DNA of 64,000 nt, taken from contig DAITPU010000001.1 of assembly GCA_036833455.1 (NCBI GenBank), positions 7,549 through 71,548 on the forward strand, written 5' to 3'. Numbering within the stretch: position 1 is the stretch's first letter; each line of letters opens with the position of its first letter. This DNA comes from a bacterium (GTDB lineage Archaea; Nanobdellota; Nanobdellia; Pacearchaeales; GW2011-AR1). Made by a program: the position numbers and the translations under genes. Below the pieces are notes generated by a model. It searched no databases, had not been told where the DNA came from, and saw only the letters and a list, made by a program, of their open reading frames with translations. This document shows, piece after piece, positions 1 through 35,355 of the stretch.

Positions 1-2900
1 TGCCGTCGTAGAATCATTCAAATCAAAAGGTAAATTCAAAACAGCCCAAGAGGTTCCATTCAACCTCCAATCTGTAATATTATAAATTAAATCTTCATCT
101 AAATCTGTTGAATTAGAAATATAAACACTCAAATTTTCAAAAGTAGTATTAGTTCCCGAAGAGGAATTTAAAATAACTATTGGAAAAGTTGGAGCGCTAT
201 TAACTTGTTCACCTAAGATAGTCAAATTAGAACTTAAAACTGAAGTTCCTTCCGAAGAAAAATTAGTTGGAGTTACCATTACTGACCAATTTTCTCCAAC
301 TGAAGTTTCTTGCGAAACAATTGTTTCGATTGATTTATTATTTAATCCAGCTTGATAAATAGCACTAATTTGTTCTGCTGAAAGTGCTTCATCAAATATC
401 ATTACTTCATCTATTGAACCATTAAAATAATTACCTGCTGCATTAAATGTAGCAAAAAGTAAATTATTGGTAGATTTCCCGACAGAAAAACTTTTACTTA
501 AAGAAAAAACATTACTTCCATCTAAATAACCTTCCCACTTACTTCCATTATAAGAATAAACTATATGGTGCCAATTTGTATCTGAAAGAGTTATTCCAGA
601 ACCAGTTCGAGGATTATCTCCTGTATAAACCCCAGAATAAAATTCAACTTGATTATTTACATACTCCCAAATTAAAGAATAAACATTATCTGTTCCAGCA
701 TCATTCCTTTTAGATAAAAGATATCTATTAGTTTGACTTAAATCGCTAGGTTTAATCCAAAGTGAAAAAGCAAAATTATTTGTTAAATTTAAAGTTCCAT
801 TATAAGGAACGGTAATATAATCCCCTCCATCAAAATTGTAACATCCTCCCACTTTACAATTTGAACTCCAAGTTGGTTTTGCAGTTGATGAAGCCAGAGT
901 TCCATTATTTCCATAAGTTGAATAATCTTTTGCCGTCGTAGAATCATTCAAATCAAAGGGCATATTCAAAACTGCCCAAGAGGTTCCATTTAATCTCCAA
1001 TCTGTAATAGTTGCATTCGTATCAGTTGAAGAAATATACGCCGTTAAATTTTCATTAGTAGTATTAGTTCCCGAAGAGGAATTTAGAATTACTGAATTTA
1101 TTATTGGATTTCTTACTAAATCCAAAATAGTCAAATTAGAACTTAAAACTGAAGTTCCTTCTAAACTTAAATCTGTGGGAGTGGATCTAACTGACCAATT
1201 TTCTCCAACTGAAGTTTCTTGCGAAACAATTGTTTCGATTGATTGATTATTTAATCCAGCTTGATAAATAGCACTAATTTGTTCTGCTGAAAGTGCTCTA
1301 TTGAAGATCATAAATTCATCAATTCTTCCTTTAAAATATTTTTCACCATTATTAGCTTGATCTGCCGCTCCTATTTGATGGCTTGTATAGGTTCCAGACC
1401 AATCAAGAGTAATATTTCCGATAGTATTATTTGCTACACGAGAACCATTAAAATAAATTTTCATTTCATTTCCATCATAAGTTACCACAAGATGATGCCA
1501 TTGATTAGTTGAAGGGAGAGAAGCCGGATTCCATGCACAAGAATATCTAGTAGTAGAACTATGTAAATCATAATATATCGTGTTTAAACTTCCCCAACTA
1601 CTTATTGCAATACCTCCATCATAATTGTTGTTAGTAAGATGTTGCCCCCCATAAAAACCAGGATAAGTGTTTTGAGACCAATTTGAAGAATTTATCCACA
1701 TCACAATTGAGTGAGGTCCTGTTTGTCTAGCTGAATCTGGAAGAGTTATTTTATCGTTACTTCCATCAAAACTATAACATCCTCCAACCTTACAATTTGA
1801 AACCCAGGTTGCTCCACTTACAGAACCATTATTACTCAATGTAGAATAATCTTTAGTTACACTAGAATTTTCTAAATCAAAGGGCATATTCATCGCTGCC
1901 CAAGAAGCACCGTTTACTCTCCAATCCGTAATCGTTGAATTTGAATTAGTTGAATTTATATATGCGGTTAAATTCTCATTAGTAGTATTAGTTCCCGAAG
2001 AGGAATTTAGAATTACTGAATTAACAGTAGGGATTCCTACAAAATTTTCATAAGGTAAAACATTTCCTGAATTGTAAAGAGTTTGAATTTCCGATAAACT
2101 TAACTCTCTATTCCAAATTGCCCATTCATCATAATCTATATTTATTACGGCCCCCCCTCCAAGCAAACCAAGATTTGCATTAACTGTAGTTGCACCGCTT
2201 GTAGTCCTATTATAAGCTGAAACTGCATTAACATAAAGTTTTACATGGCTTGAACTATTCATTGTAATAACCACATGATACCATGTGTCTGCAGAAAAAT
2301 TTACTGAAGATGAATATTGAACCCAAGTTCCACTTGGCCTATCAGTAACATAAAAAACATAATTAGCTCCATCCAATTTAGTTCCTACAAAAAAGTTTAG
2401 ATTAGCTGCATTATTTGCATATTGCCCCCAAAATGCTCCTGGATTAGAATTATTACTCCTAACCCAAAAACTATGTGTAAAAGCTGAAGTTCTACTCTGT
2501 AATGCCCCTAAAGCAAGTCCTTGGTCATTAGTATTTCTTCCTCTAATTCTTAAAGCATTATTTTCTTTTCCACTAATCCAACTATATGTAAAAATAGCAG
2601 TTCTATTATCTGAAGCATGACTATCATATGCAGTACTTCCACTTGATTCATCTAACTTCCAATAAGAAACTAATCCGTTAGTTAAATTATATGAAGGATC
2701 AACAGCCAAATCACTAACAACTCTACTCTCGTCGGCAAAACTAAAATTCAAAACAGCGTATCCTGCTATATTCATAAATGAACTAAACTCTCCTGTATCC
2801 AAACAAGAATAATTTTCAACAAAAAATTTCAAAGGCTTAACACTTTCATTTATTTCCGAATATTTTAAAATTTCTTCATTTTCAGTAATAATATACAAAT
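1..2900 (-). repeat. In-frame tandem DNA repeats of about 910-930 bp (at least 3 copies) inside the giant surface-protein gene
   Basis: Exact 27-mer tgccgtcgtagaatcattcaaatcaaa occurs at 1 and 931. The 44-mer ttctccaactgaagtttcttgcgaaacaattgtttcgattgatt occurs at 291 and 1201. tattagttcccgaagaggaattta occurs at about 150, 1062 and 1985. Each unit encodes one LamG-like module. Confidence 0.8.
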
Positions 2901-4644
2901 CATCAATTAAATTTTCCTCTCCACACTTCAAATTTAAAAATTCCATTTCATCTTCAGTTTCTAAATTATCCTTAGGAATTTCTTCAAAAAATGCATTAGG
3001 AGAATAAATTGTTAAATTTCCAACTCCAGTAGTATTAAAATAAACTTTCCAAAGATCTCCATCTTTCAAATATTCTAAAGGATTCAAAACAGTTATAGTA
3101 ATTTCAAAAGTTTGATTAGAAAGATGAGGTGCAATCCACTCAACATAATCATAAAGCCCGTTTCCATTTAAATCATAAAACTCGTAACTCTCAATATATT
3201 TCTCTTCTTCCACCCAATAAATCTTAAATTCTGTTCCTTCTCTAAATTCTAATTCTTTTGAAATTTCTGCAAAAACTAAAACATTTTCATAATGAATATT
3301 TTCCGGTCCAACAATTTTTACAATTTTTCCTTTAGAAGTTTCTTCTTCCAAAGAATAAGGAGCAGGAGTTTCATATTCAATAACAACTAATTCTTTAGTA
3401 TTGTCAAGAACTAACTCCAAAGAGTTCTCTCTTTCCAAAATTTCAAATTCTTCTCCGACAGAAAAACCCGTAAAAACAAAAATCTTAGAAAAGAAATTTT
3501 TAATTCCCTCAAAAAAACCCTCTCCAGATTCAGAAATAGAATATCCCGTTAAAAAACTTCTAGAAGTTTCACCTTTTTCTCTAAACATTTCTTGATTATA
3601 ATCTTCTAACTTGTCTTCTATCTTTTCTGCCTTCGTTCCAGTTTTAATTTCAATTTTTTCAGAGTTAATAGGAATTTCAACTTTAACTTTTGTAGAATTT
3701 ATTTCCTCTAAATTTATTTTTTTAACCCAACGAACAGGTTTTCCTAAAACAATATTTGAATTAAGAGTTTCAATACTTTCATTATTCAGACCAAAAATTT
3801 CTTCTTCCAAAAGAGTTTCATTTAATTCAGATTCATTTAAGTTTTCATCTAATTCAGTTTGATTTAAACTTTCATTAAGTTCGGTTTCATTTAGTTGAAA
3901 TTCTTCTAAAGTTTGATTTACTTCAGTTTGATTTAAATTTTCTTGAAAAGAACTTCCCCCAGAACTAAAATCAAAGTTATTTTCTGTTTCCTCTAAAGGT
4001 TTTTCAGGAATAAACTCTGAATCATTAATTGAAATATTTTCAAGAATCTCAATTTCTCCAGAATCATTTAAAATTTCATCTTCAAATCCACTCTCTTTCA
4101 TTTCTTGGTTATCTTCAGTAATATCTCCTTCTACTTTTTCTTGAGTACTCTCTCCTTCTACTCCTTGAAAAACTTCCTCAGAATCTTCCTCAGAAATTTG
4201 TTCTTCTAAGTCAAGATTAGGGTTTTCATCAGAAACTTCATCTGAAGTAATCTCTTCTTCTACATTCCCTTCTTCTGAATTAGAAAAAGATTCATCTGTT
4301 AAACTCTTACTTCCGGTAGATATCTCCCTTTCAGAAGAAACTCCTTCTGAATCTTCTACCATAAAACCAGTTAAAGAAGAATAACTTTTAGAAATAGAAT
4401 CAAAAATTTTTTCAAATCCCAATTTTTCTTTATCAAAAGAATTTTCTCCGTAAGAAATAAAAGAAAAAACTCCTAAAATCAGGATTACACTACATAAAAA
4501 AATTAAAAAGAAGGGAGTTTTTTTCTTGGGTTTATAATCTTTTAAATATTTAGAAACAATATTCCCCTCTGAATCTCTATAGCTTTCATAATAGTATGGT
4601 CCAAAAACTTTATCTCCTCTTTTAATATACCTTTTATACACCAT
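1..4644 (-). CDS. Giant secreted or surface protein, 3'-partial (more than 1540 aa in window). It has an N-terminal TM anchor, an acidic NETELNE-type low-complexity linker and at least 3 tandem LamG/concanavalin-like jelly-roll modules.
   Basis: Manual reverse-complement translation from ATG at 4644 (MVYKRYIKRGDKVFGPYYYESYRDSEGNIVSKYLKDYKPKKKTPFFLIFLCSVILILGVFSF...) reads without stops to the window start. Repeated modules contain W..HHLVVTYDGNEMKIYFNG...IDEFMIFNRALSAEQISAIYQAG, typical of the Laminin_G_3 / concanavalin-like fold. It is not in the ORF track because it runs off the edge. Confidence 0.75.
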   Translation of the reverse strand, partial: MVYKRYIKRGDKVFGPYYYESYRDSEGNIVSKYLKDYKPKKKTPFFLIFLCSVILILGVFSFISYGENSFDKEKLGFEKIFDSISKSYSSLTGFMVEDSEGVSSEREISTGSKSLTDESFSNSEEGNVEEEITSDEVSDENPNLDLEEQISEEDSEEVFQGVEGESTQEKVEGDITEDNQEMKESGFEDEILNDSGEIEILENISINDSEFIPEKPLEETENNFDFSSGGSSFQENLNQTEVNQTLEEFQLNETELNESLNQTELDENLNESELNETLLEEEIFGLNNESIETLNSNIVLGKPVRWVKKINLEEINSTKVKVEIPINSEKIEIKTGTKAEKIEDKLEDYNQEMFREKGETSRSFLTGYSISESGEGFFEGIKNFFSKIFVFTGFSVGEEFEILERENSLELVLDNTKELVVIEYETPAPYSLEEETSKGKIVKIVGPENIHYENVLVFAEISKELEFREGTEFKIYWVEEEKYIESYEFYDLNGNGLYDYVEWIAPHLSNQTFEITITVLNPLEYLKDGDLWKVYFNTTGVGNLTIYSPNAFFEEIPKDNLETEDEMEFLNLKCGEENLIDDLYIITENEEILKYSEINESVKPLKFFVENYSCLDTGEFSSFMNIAGYAVLNFSFADESRVVSDLAVDPSYNLTNGLVSYWKLDESSGSTAYDSHASDNRTAIFTYSWISGKENNALRIRGRNTNDQGLALGALQSRTSAFTHSFWVRSNNSNPGAFWGQYANNAANLNFFVGTKLDGANYVFYVTDRPSGTWVQYSSSVNFSADTWYHVVITMNSSSHVKLYVNAVSAYNRTTSGATTVNANLGLLGGGAVINIDYDEWAIWNRELSLSEIQTLYNSGNVLPYENFVGIPTVNSVILNSSSGTNTTNENLTAYINSTNSNSTITDWRVNGASWAAMNMPFDLENSSVTKDYSTLSNNGSVSGATWVSNCKVGGCYSFDGSNDKITLPDSARQTGPHSIVMWINSSNWSQNTYPGFYGGQHLTNNNYDGGIAISSWGSLNTIYYDLHSSTTRYSCAWNPASLPSTNQWHHLVVTYDGNEMKIYFNGSRVANNTIGNITLDWSGTYTSHQIGAADQANNGEKYFKGRIDEFMIFNRALSAEQISAIYQAGLNNQSIETIVSQETSVGENWSVRSTPTDLSLEGTSVLSSNLTILDLVRNPIINSVILNSSSGTNTTNENLTAYISSTDTNATITDWRLNGTSWAVLNMPFDLNDSTTAKDYSTYGNNGTLASSTAKPTWSSNCKVGGCYNFDGGDYITVPYNGTLNLTNNFAFSLWIKPSDLSQTNRYLLSKRNDAGTDNVYSLIWEYVNNQVEFYSGVYTGDNPRTGSGITLSDTNWHHIVYSYNGSKWEGYLDGSNVFSLSKSFSVGKSTNNLLFATFNAAGNYFNGSIDEVMIFDEALSAEQISAIYQAGLNNKSIETIVSQETSVGENWSVMVTPTNFSSEGTSVLSSNLTILGEQVNSAPTFPIVILNSSSGTNTTFENLSVYISNSTDLDEDLIYNITDWRLNGTSWAVLNLPFDLNDSTTA

Positions 4645-4719: not shown

Positions 4720-5904
4720 TCACCTTGTAATAATTTCTAAAGAATCCCTATGTTTTAAAAGATAATCTTTGCCTAAGGCCATTTTTGTTTTTGCATTAAT
4801 TGCTTTTATAAAATTTTTACCAAAATCAGTGTGTAAAAAATAAGCAAAATCTAAAGCAGTCGAACCTTTTGGAAGTAAAAAACAATCTGGGAGTATATTC
4901 CCTTTTGAATCTCCCAATTTATTTGCAGAACCCGGAAAAATAGCCAAATAACCTAATAAATCAAAAACAACCCTATTCAAAATTTCCTGGATTCCTGTTC
5001 CAAATTCATACTTCTCTAAAACATCTCCTTTTATTTTATTTAATGCTTCTACTTGTTTTTCTCCTAAATCTTTCAAAACTTTAAACGCTCTTTCACCAGG
5101 AATATAATCTATTAAACCCGCCTTAGATGCTTGTCTAAGTGCAAGTTCAGAATCTGCAGAACAAGGAATAAAAATTAAATGAGGAAATTCTTTAATCACT
5201 CTTTCATAATTTTCTCTTCCAGAGGCAATATCTATTTTATTTGCAGCAACAATCATTGGTTTAGAAATATGCCTTAACTCCGTTGAAAAAACCTTTAATT
5301 GGTTTTCATTCCAATTAGAGCATCTTGGGGGAAGATTTAACTTTGAAAGAACTGCTTTAACTTGTTCTTCATTAACTTTTAAACCCGAAAATTGTCTTGC
5401 AATAGCTTCTGAAAGTTTTTGCCCTTCCATATCTACTTTTCTTGAAAAACCCGGCCAAACTTTCATTAAAATATTGTAATACCAATTAGTCAATTCTTCT
5501 TCTAAAAATTTAACATCTTCTGAAGGATTATGATTTTCAGTAGGTTTTCCTTCTAAATCTGTAGTTCCAGAAATATCTACAATATGTATAAAAGCGTCCG
5601 CTTGTCGAAGATCATCTAAAAATTTATTTCCTAATCCTTTTCCTTCCGAAGCCCCGGGAACTAATCCCGCAACATCCATTAAATCCACTGGAACAAATCT
5701 ATTTGAATTTAAACAAAATCCATGATTAGGATTGCACTTAACTCCAAAATCTTTATCGATGCATTCAACTTTAACATAACCAACACCATGGTTTGCTTTT
5801 ATAGTTGTAAAAGGATAAGAAGCAATTTCAACTTCTGCTAAAGTGGCTGCTTTAAAAAAAGTGCTCTTTCCAACTGAAGGTTTTCCAACTAATCCTAATA
5901 ACAT
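4720..5904 (-). CDS. OBG/HflX-superfamily GTPase (YchF/DRG-like) with a C-terminal TGS domain
   Basis: G1 GKPSVGKST is at the N-terminus and G4 is NKID. There is a large insertion between G3 and G4. The C-terminal TGS-like segment reads GSTALDFAYFLHTDFGKNFIKA. Confidence 0.7.
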   Translation of the reverse strand: MLLGLVGKPSVGKSTFFKAATLAEVEIASYPFTTIKANHGVGYVKVECIDKDFGVKCNPNHGFCLNSNRFVPVDLMDVAGLVPGASEGKGLGNKFLDDLRQADAFIHIVDISGTTDLEGKPTENHNPSEDVKFLEEELTNWYYNILMKVWPGFSRKVDMEGQKLSEAIARQFSGLKVNEEQVKAVLSKLNLPPRCSNWNENQLKVFSTELRHISKPMIVAANKIDIASGRENYERVIKEFPHLIFIPCSADSELALRQASKAGLIDYIPGERAFKVLKDLGEKQVEALNKIKGDVLEKYEFGTGIQEILNRVVFDLLGYLAIFPGSANKLGDSKGNILPDCFLLPKGSTALDFAYFLHTDFGKNFIKAINAKTKMALGKDYLLKHRDSLEIITR

Positions 5905-5941: not shown

Positions 5942-7387
5942 TTAATCTAATTTAGGAATTTCTATAGAATCCCGTGAAATCTTACGGGCAACCGCAGCTT
6001 TTTTGATTTGCTCTTCCTTCTTTTTATTAAAAATTATTATTGGTCTATTGAATTTTGAATAATGTAATTTCCAAATTACATAAAATAAGATTAGAGAGAG
6101 AAGTAAAACGACAATTATCCAAGATAAAAGAGAAACAACTTCTACAGCAAAAGTATCATAACTACTTGCAGTTACATTTCCTGGAGCTAAAATACGAGTA
6201 TAGAAAAGATAATTCCCAATAGGAATATCCTTAGGCACATCTATATAAAAGACCCCATTATGAGTTCTATTTATTGCAAAATCTTCTTTTTTAATAGTAT
6301 ATTCTTTACCCTCAAAATCTACAATTTTATAAATAAACTCTATATCAAAATTTCTAAGTTCTCCCATATTAATCATGCTAACTTGTGCACGAACTCTTCC
6401 TCCGGGATTTATATATTTTTTAATAACTTCTGTTCTTATATCAAATAAAGCTCCTCTATCTTTAACATCCAAAATAATTCTTACTTGTTGTTCAAAATCT
6501 TCAGATTTGAATAAAATGTATCCAACATAAACATCAGCATAAACTCTATTAGAAATATAAATATCTAAATTTAAAGTTACATTTTCTCCTGGATAAACAA
6601 GTACATTTTTAGATTCCGGAAAAACAAAATCACTAACTCCGAAAACATAATTTTGAATTTCAAAAGAACTTGAACCATTATTTACAATAGTTAATTCTTT
6701 TTTAAAATAAGTTCCTTTATCCATCTTAAATGGAATAAAATCTGGGACAAGATAGAATGTTTTTTGTGAAGGAACGACTCCCGGAGGAGAATCCCCTCCA
6801 CCACCGCCCCCTCCTCCTGAAGGAGGAGTTGGAGGAGTTACTGAACAATCTGCAGGACAAGATGCAGCGGTTTCTCCAGGTTCACAAACTCCATTTCCAC
6901 ATACATAAACAGGAGGATCATATATTTCAACTACACTTGAATTAACCCAGTCAGAAAAAGAACTTCCAGAATAAAACTGAACAGAACATTTCCAAGCATT
7001 TCCCGAAGATAAATTTCCATTTCCTAAAACACTTGAAAAAGTACTTCCATTAACATAATTGTTACTAAAATTTTGACTAAAATTAAGAATATCCCATTTA
7101 TACCAACGAACTGAAACATTAACTTTAGTTTTAGAAGAATCAGAAATAAATGCGGAACAACTTAAATCTATATTTGATTTATTTGAACCATCTAAAGAAA
7201 CTAAATTCACATTTAAAGGATCACTTAATTTTGAAATCAAGCCTAAATCAAAAAAAAATCCTTCTATATTTGATCCAGGATTTATTATTAAATTATTATC
7301 TCCTCCTGAATTTATAGAGATTATATCTGCAGAAACAATTGAAAAAAAAATTAAAGAAAATATCCAAAAATAAAGAAATCTTTTCAT
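5942..7387 (-). CDS. Secreted surface protein with signal peptide, Cys motif CGNGVCEPGETAASCPADC, a poly-Gly/Pro linker, CARDB-like beta domains, and a C-terminal TM anchor with a basic tail
   Basis: The N-terminus is hydrophobic. It has GGGGGGGG and a PTPP linker. The C-terminus reads LLSWIIVVLLLSLILFYVIWKL followed by KKKEEQIKK. It forms an operon-like tandem with the two downstream genes. Confidence 0.5.
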   Translation of the reverse strand: MKRFLYFWIFSLIFFSIVSADIISINSGGDNNLIINPGSNIEGFFFDLGLISKLSDPLNVNLVSLDGSNKSNIDLSCSAFISDSSKTKVNVSVRWYKWDILNFSQNFSNNYVNGSTFSSVLGNGNLSSGNAWKCSVQFYSGSSFSDWVNSSVVEIYDPPVYVCGNGVCEPGETAASCPADCSVTPPTPPSGGGGGGGGDSPPGVVPSQKTFYLVPDFIPFKMDKGTYFKKELTIVNNGSSSFEIQNYVFGVSDFVFPESKNVLVYPGENVTLNLDIYISNRVYADVYVGYILFKSEDFEQQVRIILDVKDRGALFDIRTEVIKKYINPGGRVRAQVSMINMGELRNFDIEFIYKIVDFEGKEYTIKKEDFAINRTHNGVFYIDVPKDIPIGNYLFYTRILAPGNVTASSYDTFAVEVVSLLSWIIVVLLLSLILFYVIWKLHYSKFNRPIIIFNKKKEEQIKKAAVARKISRDSIEIPKLD

Positions 7388-7388
7388 T

Positions 7389-10300
7389 TTAACTTATTTT
7401 GATTTTTCCTCCGGAAGCTATATATAAAATTGAATCGATAGGGGGATATCCCATATTTTTTGTGTAAATAGTTGAATTGATCGTACAATTTCCTATTCCA
7501 GAAAAAAATAATTTATTCAAACCTAAATTCGTATTTAATGAAATTATACAAAAGTCCCCCATAGAAATATTCCAATCTCCAGAACCAGAATAAATACAAC
7601 TATCAAAGGAAAGTATTCTTTTTGTAGAACTATTAACCCAAGAAGAATTATAAGTTCCGTCGGAAGCTAAACAACTAAGAATCCAATCTTGACCTGCAGA
7701 AGTATTTTCACTAGATATATTTGCAACATTAACTTCAAAACTTTCAGAATATTCTCCAATATTTCCACTTAGATTTTCAATTCCATCCACATACCATTTA
7801 TAATGGTAGGTTAAATTCTGTTTTTCTATATCTGTCGCGTTACAATACCCTCTAAGAGTATCATTATAGTAAGAAAAAAGAGGTAAAATTAAAGAAGAAA
7901 CGATAAACGGATTTGGAGAATTTATCAAAACAGAATTTGATTGAACTCTATAATTATTATCAAAATCTTCATTAGTGGGAGTAACTCCGGCAATCCAAGT
8001 TTCACCTGGGGAAGTGTGAACATTCTCCAATATATCTAAATCTTTTGCTCCCATCCCGTACCAATATAATCTTTCAATTTCTGAAGGAGTTAAAGTCAAA
8101 TTATAAATTACAAATTCATCTAATTGACCAATAAAATACCCCCATCCTCCTGCATCTCCTCCTAAAGTCAAACTTGAAGAAGGGATTGTTCCCACCCAAC
8201 CAGATTCAACTGCCGAATTTTCTTGAACTCCATCTACATAAAGAGTAAAATTATTTTCTGGTTTATCATAAGTTAAGAGAGCATGATGCCAGTTTGTTAT
8301 TGAAGATCCATTACCATTAACTTGACTTGTATTTACTAAACTTGTTCCTAATAAACTAAATCTATCTGAAATTATAAATCTTATTTTTCCAGAACTAATT
8401 TCAAAATGAAATCCATCATATCCTCCATCATCACAAACTCCTTCCTCACACATTGCAAGAATTGTTCCAGAATCAGAATAGGTATTTATCCAAAAAGATA
8501 AACTAAAACTCTGGGCATACAAATCGAAATCATTCATAGTTGTATTTATGTAATCATTTCCATCAAAACTATAAGCTCCTCCAACCTTTCCTTCCTTAAC
8601 CCAAGTCGCTCCGTGTATACTTCCGTCGTATCCATTAAATCCATAATCCTTAACTGAAGAAGAATCATTCTTGTTAAAAGCGTATTTTATTATCTCAACA
8701 CCTCTTCCAGAGTTATCCCAATCACTAACATAAGAAACAGCATTTTCAGGATAACACTGACCAACTGAAGAACTTGTGTTTCCCGTATAAAAATTTGAAA
8801 TTTTAAGTGCATCAGTAGCAGAAATATTTCCACTATTATCCCAATCTCCGCAACATAAATGAACATTTTCATCATAACAAGATATTATTTCAACAAAAAT
8901 AGCTTGTGCTAAAAAAGAATCTTCACTATCTATCTTTCCATCTCCATTCAAATCTCCTTTCAACTGACCAGGACGACAAACAACTTCACAACTTGAACTA
9001 TCAGCATCTTCCAAATAATCAAAATGTAAAGTTAAATTATCCGTAGTAAAGTTGTAAGAGCTCGTAGTGTTTAAATAAGGAACTAAAGGGAAATAAATTC
9101 CTTTAACAGAACTATTCAACCAAGAAGAATTATCTTCTCCATCATATGCTAAACAACTTAAAATCCAGTTTTCACCTGAAGTTGTTAAAGAGCTAGAGAT
9201 ATTTGCAACATTTATCTCGGCTCCAGAAGCATGACCTCCCGCCGTAACTCCTGAACTATTTAAAACATTATTCTTATACCAAGAATAGTAATAAGTTAGC
9301 GTATCTCCATCGGCATCGGTTGCATTACAATATCCTTTAAGAGTATCAGAAGAATATCTTATCGAAGGTAAAATATTTGATTCAATAATAATTGGAGGTA
9401 CATTGCTTATAGTTAAAACAGAACTATTAACCCAAGAAGAATTTTCTAAAAAATCAGAAGCGAGGCAACTTAAAGTCCAATTCTCTTCTTTTGATGTGAT
9501 TGAACTTGAAACATTTGCAACATTTATTTCAGCTCCCGAAGAATAATTTCCTTCTTTTTTACCAGAAAGATTCAAACTTCCATTTTTATACCAAAGATAA
9601 TAATAGGTTAAATTATTATCCTCTAAATCACTTGCATTACAATATCCTTTAAGAGTATCATTCGTATAAGCTACGGAAGGAAATATTGTAGAATTTTCCA
9701 TCTCTGGAGCATTATTATAAATAAAAGGGTATGTGAGAGGATCCCCTTCATTCCAGATAAGTTCAAACTCTTCAAAATCCATAGAATAATTATCATAAAT
9801 TCCAAAATAATCTATCTTTGAACCATTTAACGAATAATCTTGTTCTGAAATTTCTTGATCTGGATTATTTATTCTTAACCCTATATGGTTTTTATAATTA
9901 GAATAATTTAAGGAATTATTCCCATTGTATTCCTGAGTTTCATTTAAAACATTTTCTTCATTAGCAATAAAAATTTTTCCAACCCCATAATCATCTCCAT
10001 AAGCTTCTCTAGAAAATCCAATTAGATTCCAAGTTCCCAATTGAACAGAATTTGTAGAAGTATAAATTCCGCTTTCCGGACCATCTGGATAAACTGCAGA
10101 TGAATTACCGCTGACTAACCTACCAGAAATAGTTCTATCTGTATTAATCCATAATCCAAAACCTACATTTAAAGAATCTTCTCCCTCTGAATTAAAACCA
10201 TCATCCAAAATCCAAATTTCTTTATCTAAAGATTCTGGAACATAAACCAAAGCTAAGTAACTAAAATGGGTTCCGGACATGACCCAAAAATTTTCTTGAC

Positions 10301-10622
10301 TTCCAAAATCCACATAATTTTCTCCATCAAATTGAATTGCCCCATTTACTAATCCTTCACTCCAAAGACTATCTTTTGTTAATTCTCCATTAAAATCTTC
10401 TTTTATTAAAGCATTAACTTCAATTCCTGAACTTTCATTAAATTCATAAAAAGCAACCAATTTGCTACTAGAATTCAAATAAAGAGCAGGATATGCCGGT
10501 AAATTTCTTTCCTCTCCAAAAATTCCAAAAAAACTTCCTCCATAAGAAGGATTAATTATAAAAAAAAATATTCCCAAGACAGAAATTATTCCTAAAACAA
10601 AAAGTAAAATTTTTTTTTTCAT
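7389..10622 (-). CDS. 1077-aa secreted surface protein with an N-terminal LamG-like domain, three PKD-like repeats, a canonical dockerin, a second LamG-like domain and a fourth PKD-like repeat
   Basis: It has a signal peptide. The dockerin has two Ca-binding loops, DLNGDGKIDSED and DWDNSGNISATD, each followed by a helix. The LamG-like motif is WHHALLTYDKPENNFTLYVDG...LDEFVIYNLTLTPSEIERLY. A roughly 80-aa unit YSSDTLKGYCNATD...NWILSCLA.D is repeated three times, with a fourth copy near the C-terminus. NxS/T sequons are very frequent. Confidence 0.7.
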   Translation of the reverse strand: MKKKILLFVLGIISVLGIFFFIINPSYGGSFFGIFGEERNLPAYPALYLNSSSKLVAFYEFNESSGIEVNALIKEDFNGELTKDSLWSEGLVNGAIQFDGENYVDFGSQENFWVMSGTHFSYLALVYVPESLDKEIWILDDGFNSEGEDSLNVGFGLWINTDRTISGRLVSGNSSAVYPDGPESGIYTSTNSVQLGTWNLIGFSREAYGDDYGVGKIFIANEENVLNETQEYNGNNSLNYSNYKNHIGLRINNPDQEISEQDYSLNGSKIDYFGIYDNYSMDFEEFELIWNEGDPLTYPFIYNNAPEMENSTIFPSVAYTNDTLKGYCNASDLEDNNLTYYYLWYKNGSLNLSGKKEGNYSSGAEINVANVSSSITSKEENWTLSCLASDFLENSSWVNSSVLTISNVPPIIIESNILPSIRYSSDTLKGYCNATDADGDTLTYYYSWYKNNVLNSSGVTAGGHASGAEINVANISSSLTTSGENWILSCLAYDGEDNSSWLNSSVKGIYFPLVPYLNTTSSYNFTTDNLTLHFDYLEDADSSSCEVVCRPGQLKGDLNGDGKIDSEDSFLAQAIFVEIISCYDENVHLCCGDWDNSGNISATDALKISNFYTGNTSSSVGQCYPENAVSYVSDWDNSGRGVEIIKYAFNKNDSSSVKDYGFNGYDGSIHGATWVKEGKVGGAYSFDGNDYINTTMNDFDLYAQSFSLSFWINTYSDSGTILAMCEEGVCDDGGYDGFHFEISSGKIRFIISDRFSLLGTSLVNTSQVNGNGSSITNWHHALLTYDKPENNFTLYVDGVQENSAVESGWVGTIPSSSLTLGGDAGGWGYFIGQLDEFVIYNLTLTPSEIERLYWYGMGAKDLDILENVHTSPGETWIAGVTPTNEDFDNNYRVQSNSVLINSPNPFIVSSLILPLFSYYNDTLRGYCNATDIEKQNLTYHYKWYVDGIENLSGNIGEYSESFEVNVANISSENTSAGQDWILSCLASDGTYNSSWVNSSTKRILSFDSCIYSGSGDWNISMGDFCIISLNTNLGLNKLFFSGIGNCTINSTIYTKNMGYPPIDSILYIASGGKIKIS

Positions 10623-13250
10623 TTAAGCGCTACAAATTGAACCTCCACTGGAAAAGATTATACAATTATCCACCGTTACATTTCCTGAAAGAGTAGATGT
10701 TGAAGTTACTTCAAAAGTTCCATTAACATGAAGGGTTTTAGAAGGTTTGTTGTGATTTATTCCCACTCTTGCATTATCAAACTGACCATAAATCAAAGGA
10801 ATTGAATTCACATTTGCTTGATGAAGAATAAATACATTTGAAGCGGTATTCCCATAGCCTGCTTGATAACCCAAAGCAATTACATTATTTCCTGAATTAG
10901 AATAAAGAGCTTCATCCCCTATAGAAATTGTTTTACTTCCCAAATTATAAGCTCCAGAATAATAACCAAAAGCAACTTGATTATCCCCTTCATTAGAAAG
11001 CCCGGCCCCATATCCAAAAGCGGATTGGTAATCTCCTAAGTTATACCTTCCTGAAGAAATTCCAAATGCACTTTGCCATGATGCTTTATTAGAAGACCCA
11101 GAATAATAACCAAACGCTGTTTGTTCAAAAGAACTTTCATTTCCTGCTGCTGCTCCCCCGAACGTATTCGTATATGAATTAGAAGTTCTCAAAATAGGAA
11201 TTCCTCCTTGCATATAAGAATATCCGTCTGGAATATTCACACTTCCTGCAATAACATCTAATTTATGTGAAGGTGCTCCTCCAATACCTATATTCCCTGA
11301 TGCTCCTTGATAAATTTCAGAATTGTTTAGAGAAGAAGTTCCATTCCATAAAGGAATTCTCATTGAAGTTCCTGCTCCAGAAAGATAAGTAGGAATCGTA
11401 CTTGAATTATAAAATCCGTAAGGATTTACTAAAGGATAGTAATTAGCTAAAGAAGAATTGAAAGCTAAAGTTCCATTGTAAGCTAATGGATCTGATTCAG
11501 AAGTTAAAAAACTTGAAGTATCAATAGACCAATTAGCTATCAATCCTGTTGAATTCCAATCTTTAATTAAACCTGATGAATTATATTGATGATAAGTTGA
11601 ATTATAAGTAGAACTCCAAGATGAATTATACAAACTAAAATTTCCGCTCCAGAATGGATCTGTTTCTGTATAACTTTGTAAATATCTGTCATCACTTTGT
11701 GTTTTGTTATAAAAAGTGTCATTAATCCAAGCATCTTCATAATTTCCAACGGGCAAAGTTGTAGAATTATAATATCCGAATGGGTTGCTTGTTAAATATA
11801 AGCTTCCATTGTAAGCTAATGAATCTGTTTCAGAAGTTAAAACTCCACTTAAACAATTTCCTCCTTCAATACAAATATCTCCCGTAGAATTTATTGATCC
11901 AGACACTCCTAAATTATTTCCAACATAAGCATTTCTACCTAAATATAAATCTCTCCACCTTAAACTAGAATTTCCTAAATCAAACTGATTATGATAACCT
12001 ATTTCTGGAACAAGGGATCCATTAATCTGAAGATTATTTACTGAAATAGAATTTAATGTATAAAAATAACCCGTTTGAGCATATATAGCTCCTCCAATAA
12101 TGCTTAATCCATTTGAAGTCCACCCCCCATTAAAATCAAATTGTCCGAAAACCGAATTATTCAAAGGCATAAAAAAACTAGAATCATAACCATCCAATTT
12201 ATCTGTATCTAAAAAACTATCACTCCAATTAATTATCAACCCTGTTGAGTTCCAATCTTTAATTAAACCTGATGAATTATATTGATGATAAGTTAAATTA
12301 TAAGTAGAACTCCAACTCTCATTATAAGCTGTAAAATTAGAAGCCCATAGTGGGTCTATTTCTGTATAACTTTGTAGGTATCTATCATCACTTTGTGTTT
12401 TATTATAAAAAGTATCATTAATCCAAGCATCGTCGTAACTTCCGACGGGCAAAGTCGTAGAATTATAATATCCATAAGGATTATTTATTGAATAATATAA
12501 ACTATCTGCATAAGTTTTGTTCCATGAAAACAAAGATAAATAATTTGAATAATTAGAAGTCCATAATGGATCTGTTTCTGAAGTTAAAACTCCACTTAAA
12601 CAATTTCCTCCTTCAATACAAATATCTCCTGTTGCATTAATAGTTCCATTTGATAAAATATCTCCTGCCACATGCAATAATCTCTGAGGAGAATTAGTTC
12701 CAATTCCCACATTTCCTGAAGTAAAAAAAAGATTTCCTCCATTCAGCTCCCAATAATTAATTTGACTTAAATTAATTGCAGAAGTATTAATGTCTGTCAA
12801 ATACCTTCCGCTTCCCAAAAAATAAAAAGCACTCAAATTATAAGTTCCAAAATTCAAAGAAGAATCAATTTCTATTCCAGAACTGTTAACATATTTAGAA
12901 CGAAAAGAGTAAGGCGTCCTAGAAATTTTAGTTGAATTTATTAAAGATCCATTACGATAATAACACAAATAATATTGTTGATCATAATTTAAATTAGTAT
13001 TTTGAAGATAGTAAGAAATAATCCCTCTGGAATCGGTAGTTAAAGTTTCAGAATCAGAATAGATAACATTCAAACAATTCGAATCTGTAGTAATATTAAA
13101 AACAAAGTTATATGTTCCAGCTAAAATATTGCCTTCTGAATCAGTTGTCTGAATATTCAAATGAAGTTCATCTAAAATTTCTGCTGAAGAAGTAAAACTA
13201 ATAAGAAAAAAAATCAAAAATAAACCCAGGAAATACCTCTTTGTTACCAT
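10623..13250 (-). CDS. 875-aa secreted, heavily N-glycosylated surface protein with an internal duplication of about 240 aa and C-terminal YadA-head-like repeats
   Basis: It has a signal peptide. The GDICIEGGNCLSGVLTSETD...WINDTFYNKTQSDDRYLQSYTE block occurs twice. SAFGY.AG..N.G.NQVAFGYYSG...VIALGYQAG repeats resemble the left-handed beta-roll head of trimeric adhesins and phage fibres. More than 60 NxS/T sequons are present. Confidence 0.6.
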   Translation of the reverse strand: MVTKRYFLGLFLIFFLISFTSSAEILDELHLNIQTTDSEGNILAGTYNFVFNITTDSNCLNVIYSDSETLTTDSRGIISYYLQNTNLNYDQQYYLCYYRNGSLINSTKISRTPYSFRSKYVNSSGIEIDSSLNFGTYNLSAFYFLGSGRYLTDINTSAINLSQINYWELNGGNLFFTSGNVGIGTNSPQRLLHVAGDILSNGTINATGDICIEGGNCLSGVLTSETDPLWTSNYSNYLSLFSWNKTYADSLYYSINNPYGYYNSTTLPVGSYDDAWINDTFYNKTQSDDRYLQSYTEIDPLWASNFTAYNESWSSTYNLTYHQYNSSGLIKDWNSTGLIINWSDSFLDTDKLDGYDSSFFMPLNNSVFGQFDFNGGWTSNGLSIIGGAIYAQTGYFYTLNSISVNNLQINGSLVPEIGYHNQFDLGNSSLRWRDLYLGRNAYVGNNLGVSGSINSTGDICIEGGNCLSGVLTSETDSLAYNGSLYLTSNPFGYYNSTTLPVGNYEDAWINDTFYNKTQSDDRYLQSYTETDPFWSGNFSLYNSSWSSTYNSTYHQYNSSGLIKDWNSTGLIANWSIDTSSFLTSESDPLAYNGTLAFNSSLANYYPLVNPYGFYNSSTIPTYLSGAGTSMRIPLWNGTSSLNNSEIYQGASGNIGIGGAPSHKLDVIAGSVNIPDGYSYMQGGIPILRTSNSYTNTFGGAAAGNESSFEQTAFGYYSGSSNKASWQSAFGISSGRYNLGDYQSAFGYGAGLSNEGDNQVAFGYYSGAYNLGSKTISIGDEALYSNSGNNVIALGYQAGYGNTASNVFILHQANVNSIPLIYGQFDNARVGINHNKPSKTLHVNGTFEVTSTSTLSGNVTVDNCIIFSSGGSICSA

Positions 13251-13773: not shown

Positions 13774-13894
13774 TGATCCTGCTGAGATTTGAACTCAGGA
13801 CCTCTGGCTCTCTTAGAAAGCTCCAAGAGATAGCAACCCTAACGAATTACTTTCTTATAAGACCAGCGCTCTAACCAGGCTGAGCTACAGGATC
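13774..13894 (-). tRNA. tRNA-Ile (anticodon UAU) with a 47-48 nt intron 3' of the anticodon; CCA not encoded
   Basis: Manual cloverleaf on the minus strand reads GATCCTG-TA-GCTC-AGCCTGGTTA-GAGC-G-CTGGT-CTTATAA-[intron GAAAG..AAGAG]-GCCAG-AGGTC-CTGAG-TTCAAAT-CTCAG-CAGGATC-A. All stems pair. Confidence 0.7.
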
Positions 13895-13936: not shown

Positions 13937-15313
13937 TTATTCTCTAGGTTTAGATTGAGCTAAAAAATAAGCCATGTTAGAATCAACTTCTTTAGACTTT
14001 CTATCTTTTTTATAAGTTCCTTTAGTCCTAGGCAAAGCAAATTTACCTAAAACTCCTACTTTAGAATAGATTATATAAGATAAAATCCTCTTTTCTCCAG
14101 GTTCTAGTCTATCAAATTCCCATTCAAAAATCTTACTTCCTTTGTGGAACCTTTTAGGTATTTCTCCTCCAAAATGATTATATACATCAACTAATGGGGG
14201 TAATCTATCTATAATTTTAACATTTTCTAGATGATCGTTAGCTTCTAAGATGATAGAAACTTTCAATCCAAATTCCCCTCCTTTGGCATTAACAAAATTA
14301 ACTTTTTTCTTAATTAAAAGATCTCTTTTAGAATATTTATCTGTTAAATACCAAACCAAAATTAAAAACAATATAACTGCAAAAGGGAGAAACCAGTTTG
14401 TTTTAGTTTTAACTTCTAATTTTTCCCCAGGATTTAATTCTTGAACCCAAGTATAATAAATCTTAGAACCCTGCCTTTCTACAAAATCCGGTTCAATACT
14501 GAATGTAGTAAAAAGTCTAGAAAAGATATTTTTTTTGGCAGTTATTACTGCTGGCAGGGGAATATTTCCCTCATTACTTTTCTCTTGAATTTGAGTCAAG
14601 ATAAAAAAACCATAATTTTGTTCCCGAGTTGAAATTAAACTTTTTTCTTCAAATTCCAATTTACCTTCAAGCTCTACTTCAGAATCTTTAACTTTTAGAA
14701 GAGCATTTATACTATAAAAACCAGCCCCCAAACTACTAAAATCCTTCTTATTTAGCGAAACTTTAACACTCTTTTTTTCAGAAGGACCTAAATCAAAACT
14801 ACCCGAAGTTTTAAAGAAAGCCGAATTAAATTCAAAATCTAAATCGCTAAAATAAAAGTTAACTTTGTTATAGACATAAATATCTGTATATTTAGATTCT
14901 GGATCAATTTTTCCAGCACTTATTTCAAAAGCATCTTCCAAATCAATTATATTCACAATTAACTCTTCTTTAATTTCTTCACCTTTTGAAGATTGAATGT
15001 AATATTCAAAAAGAACGTATTTTCTCAAATGAAGATCTTCTCTAGGATGCAAATAGAAAGTAACTTCTTTTGTTTCCCCCGATTTTATTTTAAAACTCTC
15101 CATAGGAGTTATTCCTCCTGCAAAAAGAGAATAAATATGAAAATTATCTGTTGGCCCATTGTTAGTAATATTAATTTTAAACGTCGCTGGATCTCCCGTA
15201 CCAAGAACCAAAAATTCATTTGAACTAACTTTCTGAACTTCCAAATCAATAGCAGATACTAAAGGAAATAAAATCAAACTAAAAAATAAAATCCCCAAAA
15301 TCACTTTTTTCAT
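13937..15313 (-). CDS. Membrane protein with a signal peptide, an extracellular CARDB/DUF11-like beta domain, one TM helix and a cytoplasmic domain of about 150 aa
   Basis: The N-terminus is hydrophobic. LVLGTGDPATFKINITNNGPTDNF is present. The TM helix FLPFAVILFLILVWYL is at about residue 305. Confidence 0.4.
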   Translation of the reverse strand: MKKVILGILFFSLILFPLVSAIDLEVQKVSSNEFLVLGTGDPATFKINITNNGPTDNFHIYSLFAGGITPMESFKIKSGETKEVTFYLHPREDLHLRKYVLFEYYIQSSKGEEIKEELIVNIIDLEDAFEISAGKIDPESKYTDIYVYNKVNFYFSDLDFEFNSAFFKTSGSFDLGPSEKKSVKVSLNKKDFSSLGAGFYSINALLKVKDSEVELEGKLEFEEKSLISTREQNYGFFILTQIQEKSNEGNIPLPAVITAKKNIFSRLFTTFSIEPDFVERQGSKIYYTWVQELNPGEKLEVKTKTNWFLPFAVILFLILVWYLTDKYSKRDLLIKKKVNFVNAKGGEFGLKVSIILEANDHLENVKIIDRLPPLVDVYNHFGGEIPKRFHKGSKIFEWEFDRLEPGEKRILSYIIYSKVGVLGKFALPRTKGTYKKDRKSKEVDSNMAYFLAQSKPRE

Positions 15314-29908: not shown

Positions 29909-31165
29909 TTAATTTTTTTCCTCAATTAAATTAATCGCCCAATTAACAAAATCTTCATCTTTTTCAAAAGTAATTAACTCATTTTCATTAAACAAAGCAT
30001 ACATTCTTCTTTCATTTGGATTCAATCCATACCAGTCAAAATAATCATTTCTCATTTTTCTTATTGCAATCTTATTGTCTTGCATTACCCCAGAATCATT
30101 TATATTTTTTATTTCTAAGGCTGTAGAAAACTTAGTTCTACCTTGATCATAAATTGCAAAATGATTATTTTTATAACAAAGAATACTCAAATGAGTTGGC
30201 CACAAAATGTTATAACAATTAACAGAATTATTATACTCTCTCATTAAAGATAATGTTGTAATTGCCCAATCTTCACAATCCCCCATTTTTATCCTTAATA
30301 CTTCTGCAGGCGTTTGCCAATATTCTGATTTTTTAAATCTATTTTGATCAGAAATATAAGAAATTCTCATGTAATTTGCAATTACATCTAAATCTTCCCA
30401 TGTGTTATTTTTAAAATATTTTTTTAAATTATCCTCCAAATAAGATCTTGTTTCTTCTGGACGAACAAAATCTTGTATTTCAACATAATATTTTGGCCAA
30501 CGAGGATCTAAATCCATATCAAATTCCAATGTTTCATTATTATCAAAAAAATATTTTAGATCATGTATTGACCAATATTCTGCAAAAGGGAGATTTGCAT
30601 CTTTTTCAAAACAAAAATCTGTCCTTCCAAAAATATGAATCGTAGAATTTATCTTAAATTTTTGATTATACTCTTTTTCTGTTAAAAGAAAAGCCCCTTC
30701 TTGAGTGTCTCCTATAAAAAAATCATCAACATAAACTTTTCCGTTTAATTTGCAATTTGTTTTATTATCGTAAAAAAGAAAATTCATTGTTTTGATTTTT
30801 AACTGTTCTTCATAGACAATAAAATCTTGCTCCCCTTTATTAAGTAAATCTTGAGAAAAATCATAAGTAAAATTAAAAAAATTATCTTCATAAAATACTC
30901 TAAATTCAAATAAAACAACATTCGACAAATCTTCAACTAAAATAGTTATTTTACCTTCCTCGGTTACCCCCAAAGAAATATTGTTAATAAATAATTCTCC
31001 ATTCAATTTTTCCCCCGTCTCTTCTACATAAAAATTAAATGTAAAATTAGTATAGTCAGAAGGATAAATAAGGATAAATAAAAATAAAAAAATAAAAATA
31101 CTCCCCCCAAAAATTAGTATTTTTCTACACTGACCTTTATCTATTTTTGGACCTTTTTTTTTCAT
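29909..31165 (-). CDS. Membrane-anchored transglutaminase-like cysteine protease-fold protein
   Basis: N-terminal TM helix. The catalytic-core motif GDCEDWA (G.C..FA type) is followed by His and Asp candidates. Confidence 0.5.
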   Translation of the reverse strand: MKKKGPKIDKGQCRKILIFGGSIFIFLFLFILIYPSDYTNFTFNFYVEETGEKLNGELFINNISLGVTEEGKITILVEDLSNVVLFEFRVFYEDNFFNFTYDFSQDLLNKGEQDFIVYEEQLKIKTMNFLFYDNKTNCKLNGKVYVDDFFIGDTQEGAFLLTEKEYNQKFKINSTIHIFGRTDFCFEKDANLPFAEYWSIHDLKYFFDNNETLEFDMDLDPRWPKYYVEIQDFVRPEETRSYLEDNLKKYFKNNTWEDLDVIANYMRISYISDQNRFKKSEYWQTPAEVLRIKMGDCEDWAITTLSLMREYNNSVNCYNILWPTHLSILCYKNNHFAIYDQGRTKFSTALEIKNINDSGVMQDNKIAIRKMRNDYFDWYGLNPNERRMYALFNENELITFEKDEDFVNWAINLIEEKN

Positions 31166-33967: not shown

Positions 33968-34113
33968 TCCATCCACCCAGATTCGAACTGGGAACCTCTC
34001 GGGCACTGCTATGCCTTTTAGTTCTTGACTTTTAGGGTTTCATCGTATATCTTACTAGACACTCCGCCTTAGGATATCTACAGCCAAGCGCTCTGCCATT
34101 GAGCTATGGATGG
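33968..34113 (-). tRNA. tRNA-Tyr (anticodon GUA) with the archaeal/eukaryal C1-G72 pair and an intron of about 74 nt
   Basis: Cloverleaf reads CCATCCA-TA-GCTC-AATGGCA-GAGC-G-CTTGG-CTGTAGA-[intron]-CCGAG-AGGTT-CCCAG-TTCGAAT-CTGGG-TGGATGG-A. Confidence 0.7.
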
Positions 34114-34386: not shown

Positions 34387-35355
34387 TTAATTTTTTATTT
34401 TTTTAAGGAGTACTTGATTATTATCCAAAGAAAGTTCTTGCTTAGAACTTTCAACAACAATCAAAAGCTCCTCTATTTTTATTTTAGGTACCCAAATCTT
34501 TTCATAACTAACTGATAAACCGTTCCCTATTTTTATATCTTCGAATTCAGAAGATTTTATTTCGCTTGATCCAGAAAAAATACTCAATTTCCAATTTCCA
34601 GATTCAGAAAGCCCTTGATTTTTAATAGAAATGTTTATATCAAGATATTTTCCATAAAGTTCAGCACTAACTTCACTTATCTCTAAATCTGGTAAACTTG
34701 GAGAATAATAAAGCTCGTTTATTTTCAAAGGAATTTCATCTCCTATTTCTTGATTGCATTTGACTACTGGATACATAATATTTTTAGGATTATCTGAATG
34801 ATTAAAGCCTAAAACATGAAGAAGCTCATGCATTTCAACTAAAGGAAAACCACACTCAACAGATCTTAAAAGCAAAACCTCTCCTTTCAAAATAACATTA
34901 AAATTTTTTAAAGGAAGGATTTTAACTGGCCCACCCTCTCCTGCAATAAACATACTATCTTCGCTAAATTTAGATTTCTCCTCACAAAAAATACTAATTT
35001 CTTCTTCTTCTTCAACCGAATAGAATTCTAAAATAGTAGAATTTTCTAAAATTTTAAAAGCACGCTCCATATTATTTTTCTTGCTTAATATACAATCTTC
35101 AGAAATTCTATACGAAATTTCTTTAGAGGGAAACCTCATATTTGGATAAAATTGCATTTCAGAAGAAACATTTCCTAAATTAAAGCTTGGATCGCTATTT
35201 AAACTAAACTCTACCTCTTGAAAGGGAATAAACCAATAGGCCATTAATAAGATAAGGAAAAAGGTTATAATTCCTAAAGTAATCTCTTTTTTCATATACT
35301 GCATTAGTAAAATAATTATATAAACTTTCTTAAAACCCGTAACTATTAAAAACAA
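34387..35355 (-). CDS. Secreted or membrane-anchored zinc metalloprotease of the metzincin clan
   Basis: HELLHVLGFNHSD is an HExxHxxGxxH motif, followed by a Met-turn (IMYP). N-terminal TM/signal. Confidence 0.75.
   Translation of the reverse strand: MFLIVTGFKKVYIIILLMQYMKKEITLGIITFFLILLMAYWFIPFQEVEFSLNSDPSFNLGNVSSEMQFYPNMRFPSKEISYRISEDCILSKKNNMERAFKILENSTILEFYSVEEEEEISIFCEEKSKFSEDSMFIAGEGGPVKILPLKNFNVILKGEVLLLRSVECGFPLVEMHELLHVLGFNHSDNPKNIMYPVVKCNQEIGDEIPLKINELYYSPSLPDLEISEVSAELYGKYLDINISIKNQGLSESGNWKLSIFSGSSEIKSSEFEDIKIGNGLSVSYEKIWVPKIKIEELLIVVESSKQELSLDNNQVLLKKIKN

Follow-up and report, generated by a model that had tools for sequence, protein, structure and literature searches.

The closest described counterparts of the element reported here are the cellulosomal dockerins, including the type I dockerins of Clostridium thermocellum Xyn10B (1OHZ_B, 2CCL_B) and others (2Y3N_B, 4FL4), the non-cellulosomal dockerins of Archaeoglobus fulgidus and the anaerobic methanotrophic archaea (ANME), and the dockerins of ultra-small, host-dependent organisms. 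Cellulosomal dockerins reportedly recognise cohesin through positions 10, 11, 17 and 18, a finding attributed to Pages 1997 and Carvalho 2003. The A. fulgidus and ANME genomes encode cohesins, and those of ANME also encode scaffoldin-like multi-cohesin proteins. Archaeal cohesin-dockerin pairs bind specifically, according to PMC9012536, which cites Haimovitz 2008, and the roles of non-cellulosomal dockerins are given as unknown in the same article. Southlakia epibionticum (Saccharibacteria) is an epibiont with a dockerin on its surface protein SEML1_0315, found to be essential and with a speculated role in targeting the host surface (PMC10633639); the dockerins of ultra-small bacteria have only been speculated to be adhesins (PMC10066038, PMC10633639). 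Here, a 64,000-nucleotide stretch of an archaeal assembly (GCA_036833455.1, contig DAITPU010000001.1, positions 7,549 to 71,548; hereafter the window) was analysed. The open reading frame (ORF) list of the window includes a gene encoding a 1077-aa surface protein (7389..10622 (-)), in which we identified a dockerin-family module with four invariant cysteines (8754..8984 (-)). Ca-dependent docking to a cohesin-type partner whose gene lies elsewhere is considered the most likely mechanism, at a probability of roughly 0.6.

The complete module comprises 77 residues (aa 547-623), with the layout VVC-RPGQLKG-(loop 1)-helix-linker-CC-G-(loop 2)-helix-...GQC. Predicted Ca-binding loop 1 (DLNGDGKIDSED; aa 557-568; 8919..8954 (-)) was located by a regular expression and aligns to loop 1 of 2Y3N_B, 2CCL_B and 1OHZ_B. 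It has D or N at positions 1, 3, 5, 9 and 12 (D-N-D-D-D), with G6 and I8. Predicted loop 2 (DWDNSGNISATD; aa 593-604; 8811..8846 (-)), found by the same expression, has D1, D3, S5, G6, I8, S9 and D12 and falls within the best Pfam Dockerin_1 stretch (aa 592-618). The loop starts are 36 residues apart and the inter-segment linker is 14 residues long. The module contains a duplicated segment of roughly 22 residues, with two 12-residue loops carrying ligands at positions 1, 3, 5, 9 and 12, G6 and a hydrophobic position 8. The amphipathic stretch after each loop aligns to the F-hand helices of solved dockerins and is predicted to be helical. Both loops had been reported between 8800 and 8960 by a first-pass annotation of this DNA. 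That interval does hold them; the full module, as set by the profile match described below, is wider. A third candidate loop, DWDNSG at aa 634-639 (8706-8723), just N-terminal of the LamG domain, was rejected, as it has neither the hydrophobic residue at position 8 (I8) nor an acid at position 12.

The permissive Ca-loop expression was applied to the six-frame translation of the whole window and gave four matches, which are the loop pairs of two proteins. With shuffled DNA or with pooled ORF residues, 0.005-0.012 matches were obtained, with approximately 0.005 loops expected per protein, and at least two matches occurred in 0 of 5000 shuffles of the 1077-aa protein. As the four matches form two pairs in two proteins, far above the shuffles, the loop pair is considered real and not a product of chance.

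The assignment of the segment to the dockerin family, rather than to generic EF-hands, is supported by the profile searches. Pfam Dockerin_1 (PF00404), the search proposed in the first-pass annotation, matched the full 1077-aa protein at 22.9 bits, equal to the gathering cut-off of 22.9 (E 1e-4), and matched the isolated segment (aa 535-653) in two stretches at 29.3 bits (E 1e-6). The best EF-hand model on the isolated segment was EF-hand_5 (12.8 bits), followed by EF-hand_1 (9.2 bits), a result that speaks against generic EF-hand-like repeats, which the first-pass annotation had named, together with a genome free of cohesins, as one finding that would overturn its proposal. Thrombospondin-type-3 repeats (TSP_3) gave no match on this segment at E<=10. 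In a phmmer search of PDB with the single segment, nine of the ten best matches were dockerins or dockerin-bearing glycosidases, and the tenth (8zvk) was unclassifiable by name. The best alignments span both loops and helices (2Y3N_B, E 1.6e-4; 2CCL_B and 1OHZ_B, E 6-8e-4). The profile of the subfamily described below matched solved dockerins over their full length at E 4e-12 to 1e-9, compared with approximately 3e-3 for EF-hand proteins. By sequence homology to these solved dockerins, a three-helix dockerin fold is predicted for the module, and the earlier claim of dockerin identity is upheld at the family level. The accompanying description as a canonical type I module is not, as the module is divergent, internal and not C-terminal, part of a four-cysteine (4-Cys) subfamily, and carries recognition residues unlike the clostridial ones.

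The 4-Cys subfamily was delineated from the alignment of this module with the dockerin of a Peptidase_S8 protein in the same window. The two share the frame C-x6-GD(loop 1) … CC-x-D(loop 2) … G-x-C. Both window modules were used as queries in an exhaustive HMMER search, which returned 4752 proteins at E<=1e-3, and among the best 148 of these the four cysteines of the frame were present in 37 modules. All 26 of the 26 proteins carrying 4-Cys modules passed Dockerin_1. A hidden Markov model (HMM) built from the 37 related modules, with the window sequences excluded, matched the 1077-aa protein at aa 547-623 (profile positions 1-73 of 75; 60.3 bits), and the module boundaries of 8754..8984 (-) follow from this end-to-end match. 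The invariant alignment columns correspond to Cys549, seven residues before the GD of loop 1 (8976..8978 (-)), the vicinal pair Cys590-Cys591, two residues before loop 2 and present in the 37 modules (8850..8855 (-)), and Cys623 of the G-x-C motif, after the last helix (8754..8756 (-)). C549, C590, C591 and C623 thus place the module in the subfamily. Two further cysteines (C545 and C582) bring the total to six. The four invariant cysteines presumably brace the module as two disulfides, or all six cysteines as two or three. No cysteine is found at the CC positions in the two PDB dockerin alignments given residue by residue.

In one scan of the GTDB species representatives, CC-bearing modules were confined to six DPANN groups (Aenigmatarchaeota, Micrarchaeota, Nanoarchaeota, Pacearchaeota, Woesearchaeota and Diapherotrites), one bacterium of the candidate phyla radiation (CPR) and one unclassified bacterium. 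The CC-bearing matches scored 40-92 bits against the 4-Cys HMM, whereas ordinary dockerins (Firmicutes, Bacteroidales, Planctomycetes and others) scored 15-40 bits and had no CC. The sampling was biased, since one of the two search patterns held the CC; the taxonomic restriction of the CC matches is still informative. The genome of the window lies outside the representatives. In the DPANN/CPR relatives, the module is often internal or N-terminal in large surface proteins, and its partner domains include CARDB, Kazal, SLH, S-layer, cysteine-protease, NHL, FG-GAP and S8. DPANN relatives score 26-39 bits against Dockerin_1, so that the borderline score of the 1077-aa protein is normal for the subfamily. 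The nearest relative, MCX6819523.1 (Candidatus Aenigmarchaeota), is named 'dockerin type I domain-containing protein' by NCBI. In Candidatus Aenigmatarchaeota DAOUYM010000004.1 (locus L008, 7123..15397), a 4-Cys dockerin/CARDB protein stands immediately before an Inhibitor_I9 / Peptidase_S8 / FG-GAP protease with the same architecture as the S8 protease of the window.

Compared with the cellulosomal dockerins, the module has the same loop-helix pair, approximately 36 residues apart, and aligns over its full length to the C. thermocellum Xyn10B-type dockerins (E 6e-4 for the single sequence and 1e-9 for the subfamily profile). Unlike them, it is not on a glycoside hydrolase, has no scaffoldin or cohesin nearby, is internal and not C-terminal, and has four invariant and two extra cysteines, which are absent from the solved dockerins aligned residue by residue. 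The recognition positions read S-E/Q-A and A-T/S-N, compared with S-T/K-R in the clostridial modules, and the two halves are asymmetric. The dockerins of A. fulgidus and ANME are alike in having extracellular archaeal carriers and no cellulose role; however, those genomes have cohesins and, in ANME, scaffoldin-like proteins, whereas no cohesin was found in the approximately 105 kb examined here, and the 4-Cys frame was not found reported for their dockerins, as far as the literature search reached. The module shares its cysteine frame and its internal placement in large surface proteins with the DPANN/CPR 4-Cys modules, such as that of MCX6819523.1, and by sequence it is a member of this family. 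It lies at the divergent end, with DWDNSG and not DxNxDG in loop 2, a 3-residue linker insertion and the two extra cysteines. Among PDB entries, the subfamily profile is best matched (E 4e-12) by the tandem dockerin of a serine protease (8X39/8X3A), a carrier like the S8 protein of the window; this dockerin has no cysteines at the CC positions. SEML1_0315 is similar in placing a dockerin on the surface protein of an ultra-small, host-dependent organism; it is bacterial, without a known partner, and is likened to the module here by description and not by sequence.

The 1310-aa subtilase gene of the window (56659..60591 (-); Pfam) encodes an Inhibitor_I9 / Peptidase_S8 / FG-GAP protease whose C-terminal module is the second 4-Cys dockerin (56668..56898 (-); Dockerin_1 43.7 bits, E 3e-11; 81 bits to the 4-Cys HMM). 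A third dockerin protein was found on the 161 kb contig ERZ724101 NODE_25 (locus L043, 10001..11359). It is 452 aa long, with beta-propeller repeats and a C-terminal 4-Cys dockerin that is 73% identical to the S8 dockerin. NODE_25 has a guanine-cytosine (GC) content of 0.291, compared with 0.293 for the window, a tetranucleotide correlation with it of 0.996 (0.87-0.97 for other DPANN loci), and a coverage of 10.7x, compared with 9.2x for NODE_9, which carries the 1077-aa protein. NODE_25 is probably a sister contig from the same genome. All three dockerin proteins (LamG, S8 and beta-propeller) are without a C-terminal anchor. A 995-aa secreted protein with 14 NHL repeats is encoded near the third dockerin gene (locus L043, 4654..7641), and its precomputed annotation lists no Pfam match ('-').

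Strain variation was observed in both window proteins. Between two strains (other copy: locus L006, 4284..8312), the S8 protein is identical over aa 1-600 and approximately 65-90% different over aa 600-1230 (the FG-GAP region), a pattern that looks like a hypervariable cassette between fixed ends. The S8 dockerin is changed at 3/79 positions (segment-1 positions 11 and 18; loop-2 position 7). As 76/79 residues are kept while the preceding 630 vary, the module appears to be under constraint. A 94%-identical variant of the 1077-aa protein has 7 changes within the module, every one of them on the two helices (segment positions 13, 14, 17, 18 and 22; 15 and 18), and its loops and cysteines are unchanged. 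Given the helix location of these changes and the recognition positions 10, 11, 17 and 18, the strain changes fit a conserved scaffold with a tunable binding face, although the numbers are small.

The 1077-aa protein consists, in order, of an N-terminal hydrophobic segment, a weakly LamG-like N-domain, two Ig-like repeats, the dockerin, a LamG_3 domain, a third Ig-like repeat and a Cys-containing C-terminal tail. The hydrophobic segment is approximately 19 residues long and is either a signal peptide or a signal-anchor. The N-domain weakly resembles the second LamG (BLAST E 1e-3), a concanavalin-like lectin domain of the Laminin_G_3 family (aa 687-849; 8076..8564 (-); Pfam E 4.5e-22) that lies directly C-terminal of the dockerin. 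By self-alignment, two tandem Ig-like repeats of approximately 105 aa, with one Cys pair apiece, lie N-terminal of the dockerin (9093..9722 (-)), and a third copy was found at 7608..7937 (-). These repeats had been labelled PKD in the first-pass annotation. The label was dropped, as PKD models (PF00801, PF18911) gave no match at E<=10 on aa 301-545 or aa 881-1077, and the repeats, at approximately 100 aa with one Cys pair each, have an Ig-like look. Remote homologues carry Ig_2/Ig_3, and PKD in a few. The protein has 46 N-x-S/T sequons, and a hydrophobicity scan found no C-terminal membrane anchor. A search with the full-length protein found no orthologue with the dockerin, its matches covering the Ig-like repeats and LamG only, and the sole other copy was the 94%-identical strain variant. 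A word-indexed homology search with the 112-aa segment gave one candidate and no match. The protein is present on the 233 kb contig NODE_9 of ENA ERZ724101 and on related runs. The precomputed annotation of public copies gives Laminin_G_3 only, which fits the borderline full-length Dockerin_1 score. From these sequence features, the 1077-aa product is best explained as a secreted, adhesin-like, heavily N-glycosylatable protein of a DPANN archaeon (Nanoarchaeota/Pacearchaeota-like).

Under the docking mechanism, the module would act as a 77-residue unit of two F-hand Ca2+-binding loop-helix segments, braced by four cysteines and lying after two Ig-like repeats and before the second LamG lectin domain of the 1077-aa protein. 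It would bind a beta-sandwich (cohesin-type) partner in a Ca2+-dependent manner and with high affinity, and this binding would hold the LamG protein on a cell surface. Both Ca binding and the disulfides are predicted from the residue pattern. Docking onto a scaffold, as proposed in the first-pass annotation, is an inference, and so are the existence and the identity of the partner, for which no cohesin was found in the approximately 105 kb examined. The recurrence of the module type on the subtilase and probably on the beta-propeller protein suggests a small, non-cellulosomal system for the display of adhesins and proteases. A role as a strict cellulosome component was rejected: the carriers are the LamG/Ig adhesin-like protein, the S8 protease and the beta-propeller protein, none of them a carbohydrate-active enzyme, and the region yielded neither a glycoside hydrolase nor a multi-cohesin scaffoldin.

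Several results weigh against cohesin-type docking. Cohesin (PF00963) gave no match in the scanned secreted and membrane proteins of approximately 105 kb (the window, approximately 15 kb of flanks and 21 kb of NODE_25); in the flanks and NODE_25, the scan took in a 3165-aa LamG/discoidin giant, small unknown right-flank proteins and seven uncharacterised NODE_25 proteins. There was no cohesin beside the 4-Cys dockerin genes in nine other DPANN/CPR loci, and the 25 families listed across 26 subfamily proteins do not include it. The precomputed Pfam tags of public contigs are incomplete and were not used for this conclusion. The N-terminal stretch of approximately 19 residues could be a permanent signal-anchor, in which case docking would be unneeded for retention. 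The residues at the recognition positions of the LamG-protein dockerin differ from those of the S8 dockerin, so that a shared partner is not implied. The AlphaFold2 model of the module, made from a 2-sequence alignment only, was an unusable strand model with a predicted local distance difference test (pLDDT) score of 46.9. To our knowledge, there are also many non-cellulosomal dockerins without a known partner.

The missing cohesin, in the genome part covered and beside related genes, leads to the main alternative, possible but doubtful, of a dockerin that works without one, either as a rigid Ca2+/disulfide-stabilised spacer or by binding host-surface glycan or protein directly in episymbiosis. 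For docking modules, an internal position as here, or an internal or N-terminal one as in many DPANN relatives, is unusual; the invariance of the four cysteines points to selection for stability; and the dockerins of ultra-small bacteria, as mentioned above, are only speculated to be adhesins. However, strains differ in the helix faces but keep the scaffold, a pattern that suits a recognition surface better than a spacer, and the module is shared by three otherwise unrelated secreted proteins with no C-terminal anchor. Moreover, the approximately 105 kb are only part of the genome, and divergent cohesins can escape Pfam. A broader proposal, speculative and in our view unlikely, is that the 4-Cys dockerin forms a lineage of its own in ultra-small episymbionts (DPANN and CPR), disulfide-stapled for extracellular life and working without classical cohesins, through an unrecognised partner fold or by direct binding to the host envelope. 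The strain-variable helix faces would then be a host-specificity determinant, and the LamG adhesin, the subtilase and the propeller protein would be host-attachment and host-attack factors aimed by one module.

The partner could also be an abutting neighbour with a non-cohesin fold, either the 875-aa protein (10623..13250 (-)) or the 481-aa protein (5942..7387 (-)), the three forming one surface appendage. This was judged very improbable. The three genes do abut on one strand, from 13250 to 5942, and the 481-aa protein combines a C-terminal transmembrane (TM) anchor with extracellular Ig-type domains. Its confident domains, however, are PapD/MSP-like and not cohesin, its N-terminal 140 residues were modelled at low confidence, and its family is kept beside a YchF-like GTPase gene where the upstream genes differ, which argues against a dedicated partner; the 875-aa protein has no informative match. 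That the segment is not a dockerin at all, but a generic EF-hand or thrombospondin-type-3-like Ca loop pair or a chance motif, is close to refuted. The full-length Pfam score lies exactly on the threshold, the public copies are annotated with Laminin_G_3 only, and the AlphaFold2 model gives the fold no structural confirmation. Against these stand the Dockerin_1 score of 29.3 bits versus 12.8 for EF-hand_5, the lack of a TSP_3 match at E<=10, profile matches to solved dockerins down to 4e-12 versus approximately 3e-3 for EF-hand proteins, the end-to-end subfamily match of 60 bits, and the chance expectation of approximately 0.005 loops per protein. Docking to a cohesin-type partner encoded elsewhere is retained as the most likely mechanism.

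The first-pass annotation had put forward two neighbouring secreted proteins as cohesin candidates. The gene of the 481-aa protein abuts the 1077-aa gene downstream (ORF list), and its C-terminal TM anchor was recognised by hydrophobicity. Structure prediction did not bear out a cohesin beta-sandwich, as the confidently modelled domains are PapD/ASH/MSP-like tandem Ig domains, and the protein was rejected as a cohesin; model confidence was low for the N-terminal 140 residues. The other candidate, 13937..15313, had a DUF11 match only (Pfam). Besides its two PapD/MSP-like Ig domains, the 481-aa protein carries a G-rich linker and the Cys motif CGNGVCE. Members of its family occur widely in Nanoarchaeota and Pacearchaeota, and in another genome the family keeps its place beside the YchF/OLA1-like GTPase gene (4720..5904 (-) in the window). 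The product of the upstream gene in this string, the secreted 875-aa protein, contains long duplications within its sequence, with GDICIEGGNCLSGVLTSETD occurring twice, as well as 42 N-x-S/T sequons, and gave only faint phage-fibre-like matches. A Peptidase_S74 tail-fibre-type protein is encoded at the corresponding place in a related Nanoarchaeota locus. An NCBIfam search of the operon proteins added nothing.

The window has the archaeal markers thermosome (by sequence), CDC48 and family-B polymerase, and a GC content of 0.29. Two tRNA matches are oversized, at 121 nt (13774..13894 (-)) and 146 nt (33968..34113 (-)); they probably contain introns, consistent with an archaeal genome. The relatives of the window proteins are named Nanoarchaeota, Pacearchaeota and Woesearchaeota. 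The 3165-aa giant surface protein is encoded at 1..4644 (-), continuing beyond the window start (locus L004, 11261..20758). It has a cytoplasmic N-tail, a TM anchor, five Laminin_G_3 domains and an F5/8-type-C (discoidin) domain, and no dockerin. A further set of secreted or membrane proteins (40513..41565, 34387..35355, 39359..40465 and 29909..31165, all (-)) includes DsbA/thioredoxin-like, matrixin-like metalloprotease with CARDB, CAP-domain and transglutaminase-like types, and the extracellular toolkit is rich for so small a genome. The membrane protein with the DsbA/thioredoxin-like domain (40513..41565 (-); Pfam Thioredoxin_4 E 3.8e-6, DSBA E 1.9e-5) is a possible oxidase for the many extracellular cysteines, among which we would infer those of the dockerins.

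Taken together, the module is regarded as an ordinary non-cellulosomal dockerin, and as the relatives are already auto-annotated as dockerin proteins, the annotation itself is routine. The mildly interesting extra is a cysteine-stapled, DPANN/CPR-restricted subfamily that is reused within one small genome. None of the PDB matches is a solved structure of the cysteine-stapled variant, which could serve as a small, oxidation-stabilised, Ca-switchable tag. Host attachment in DPANN archaea is largely unknown, and suspicion falls mainly on their big variable surface proteins. If three secreted proteins share one docking module, a common receptor would be expected on the archaeon or its host, and the module would then be a practical bait for that receptor.

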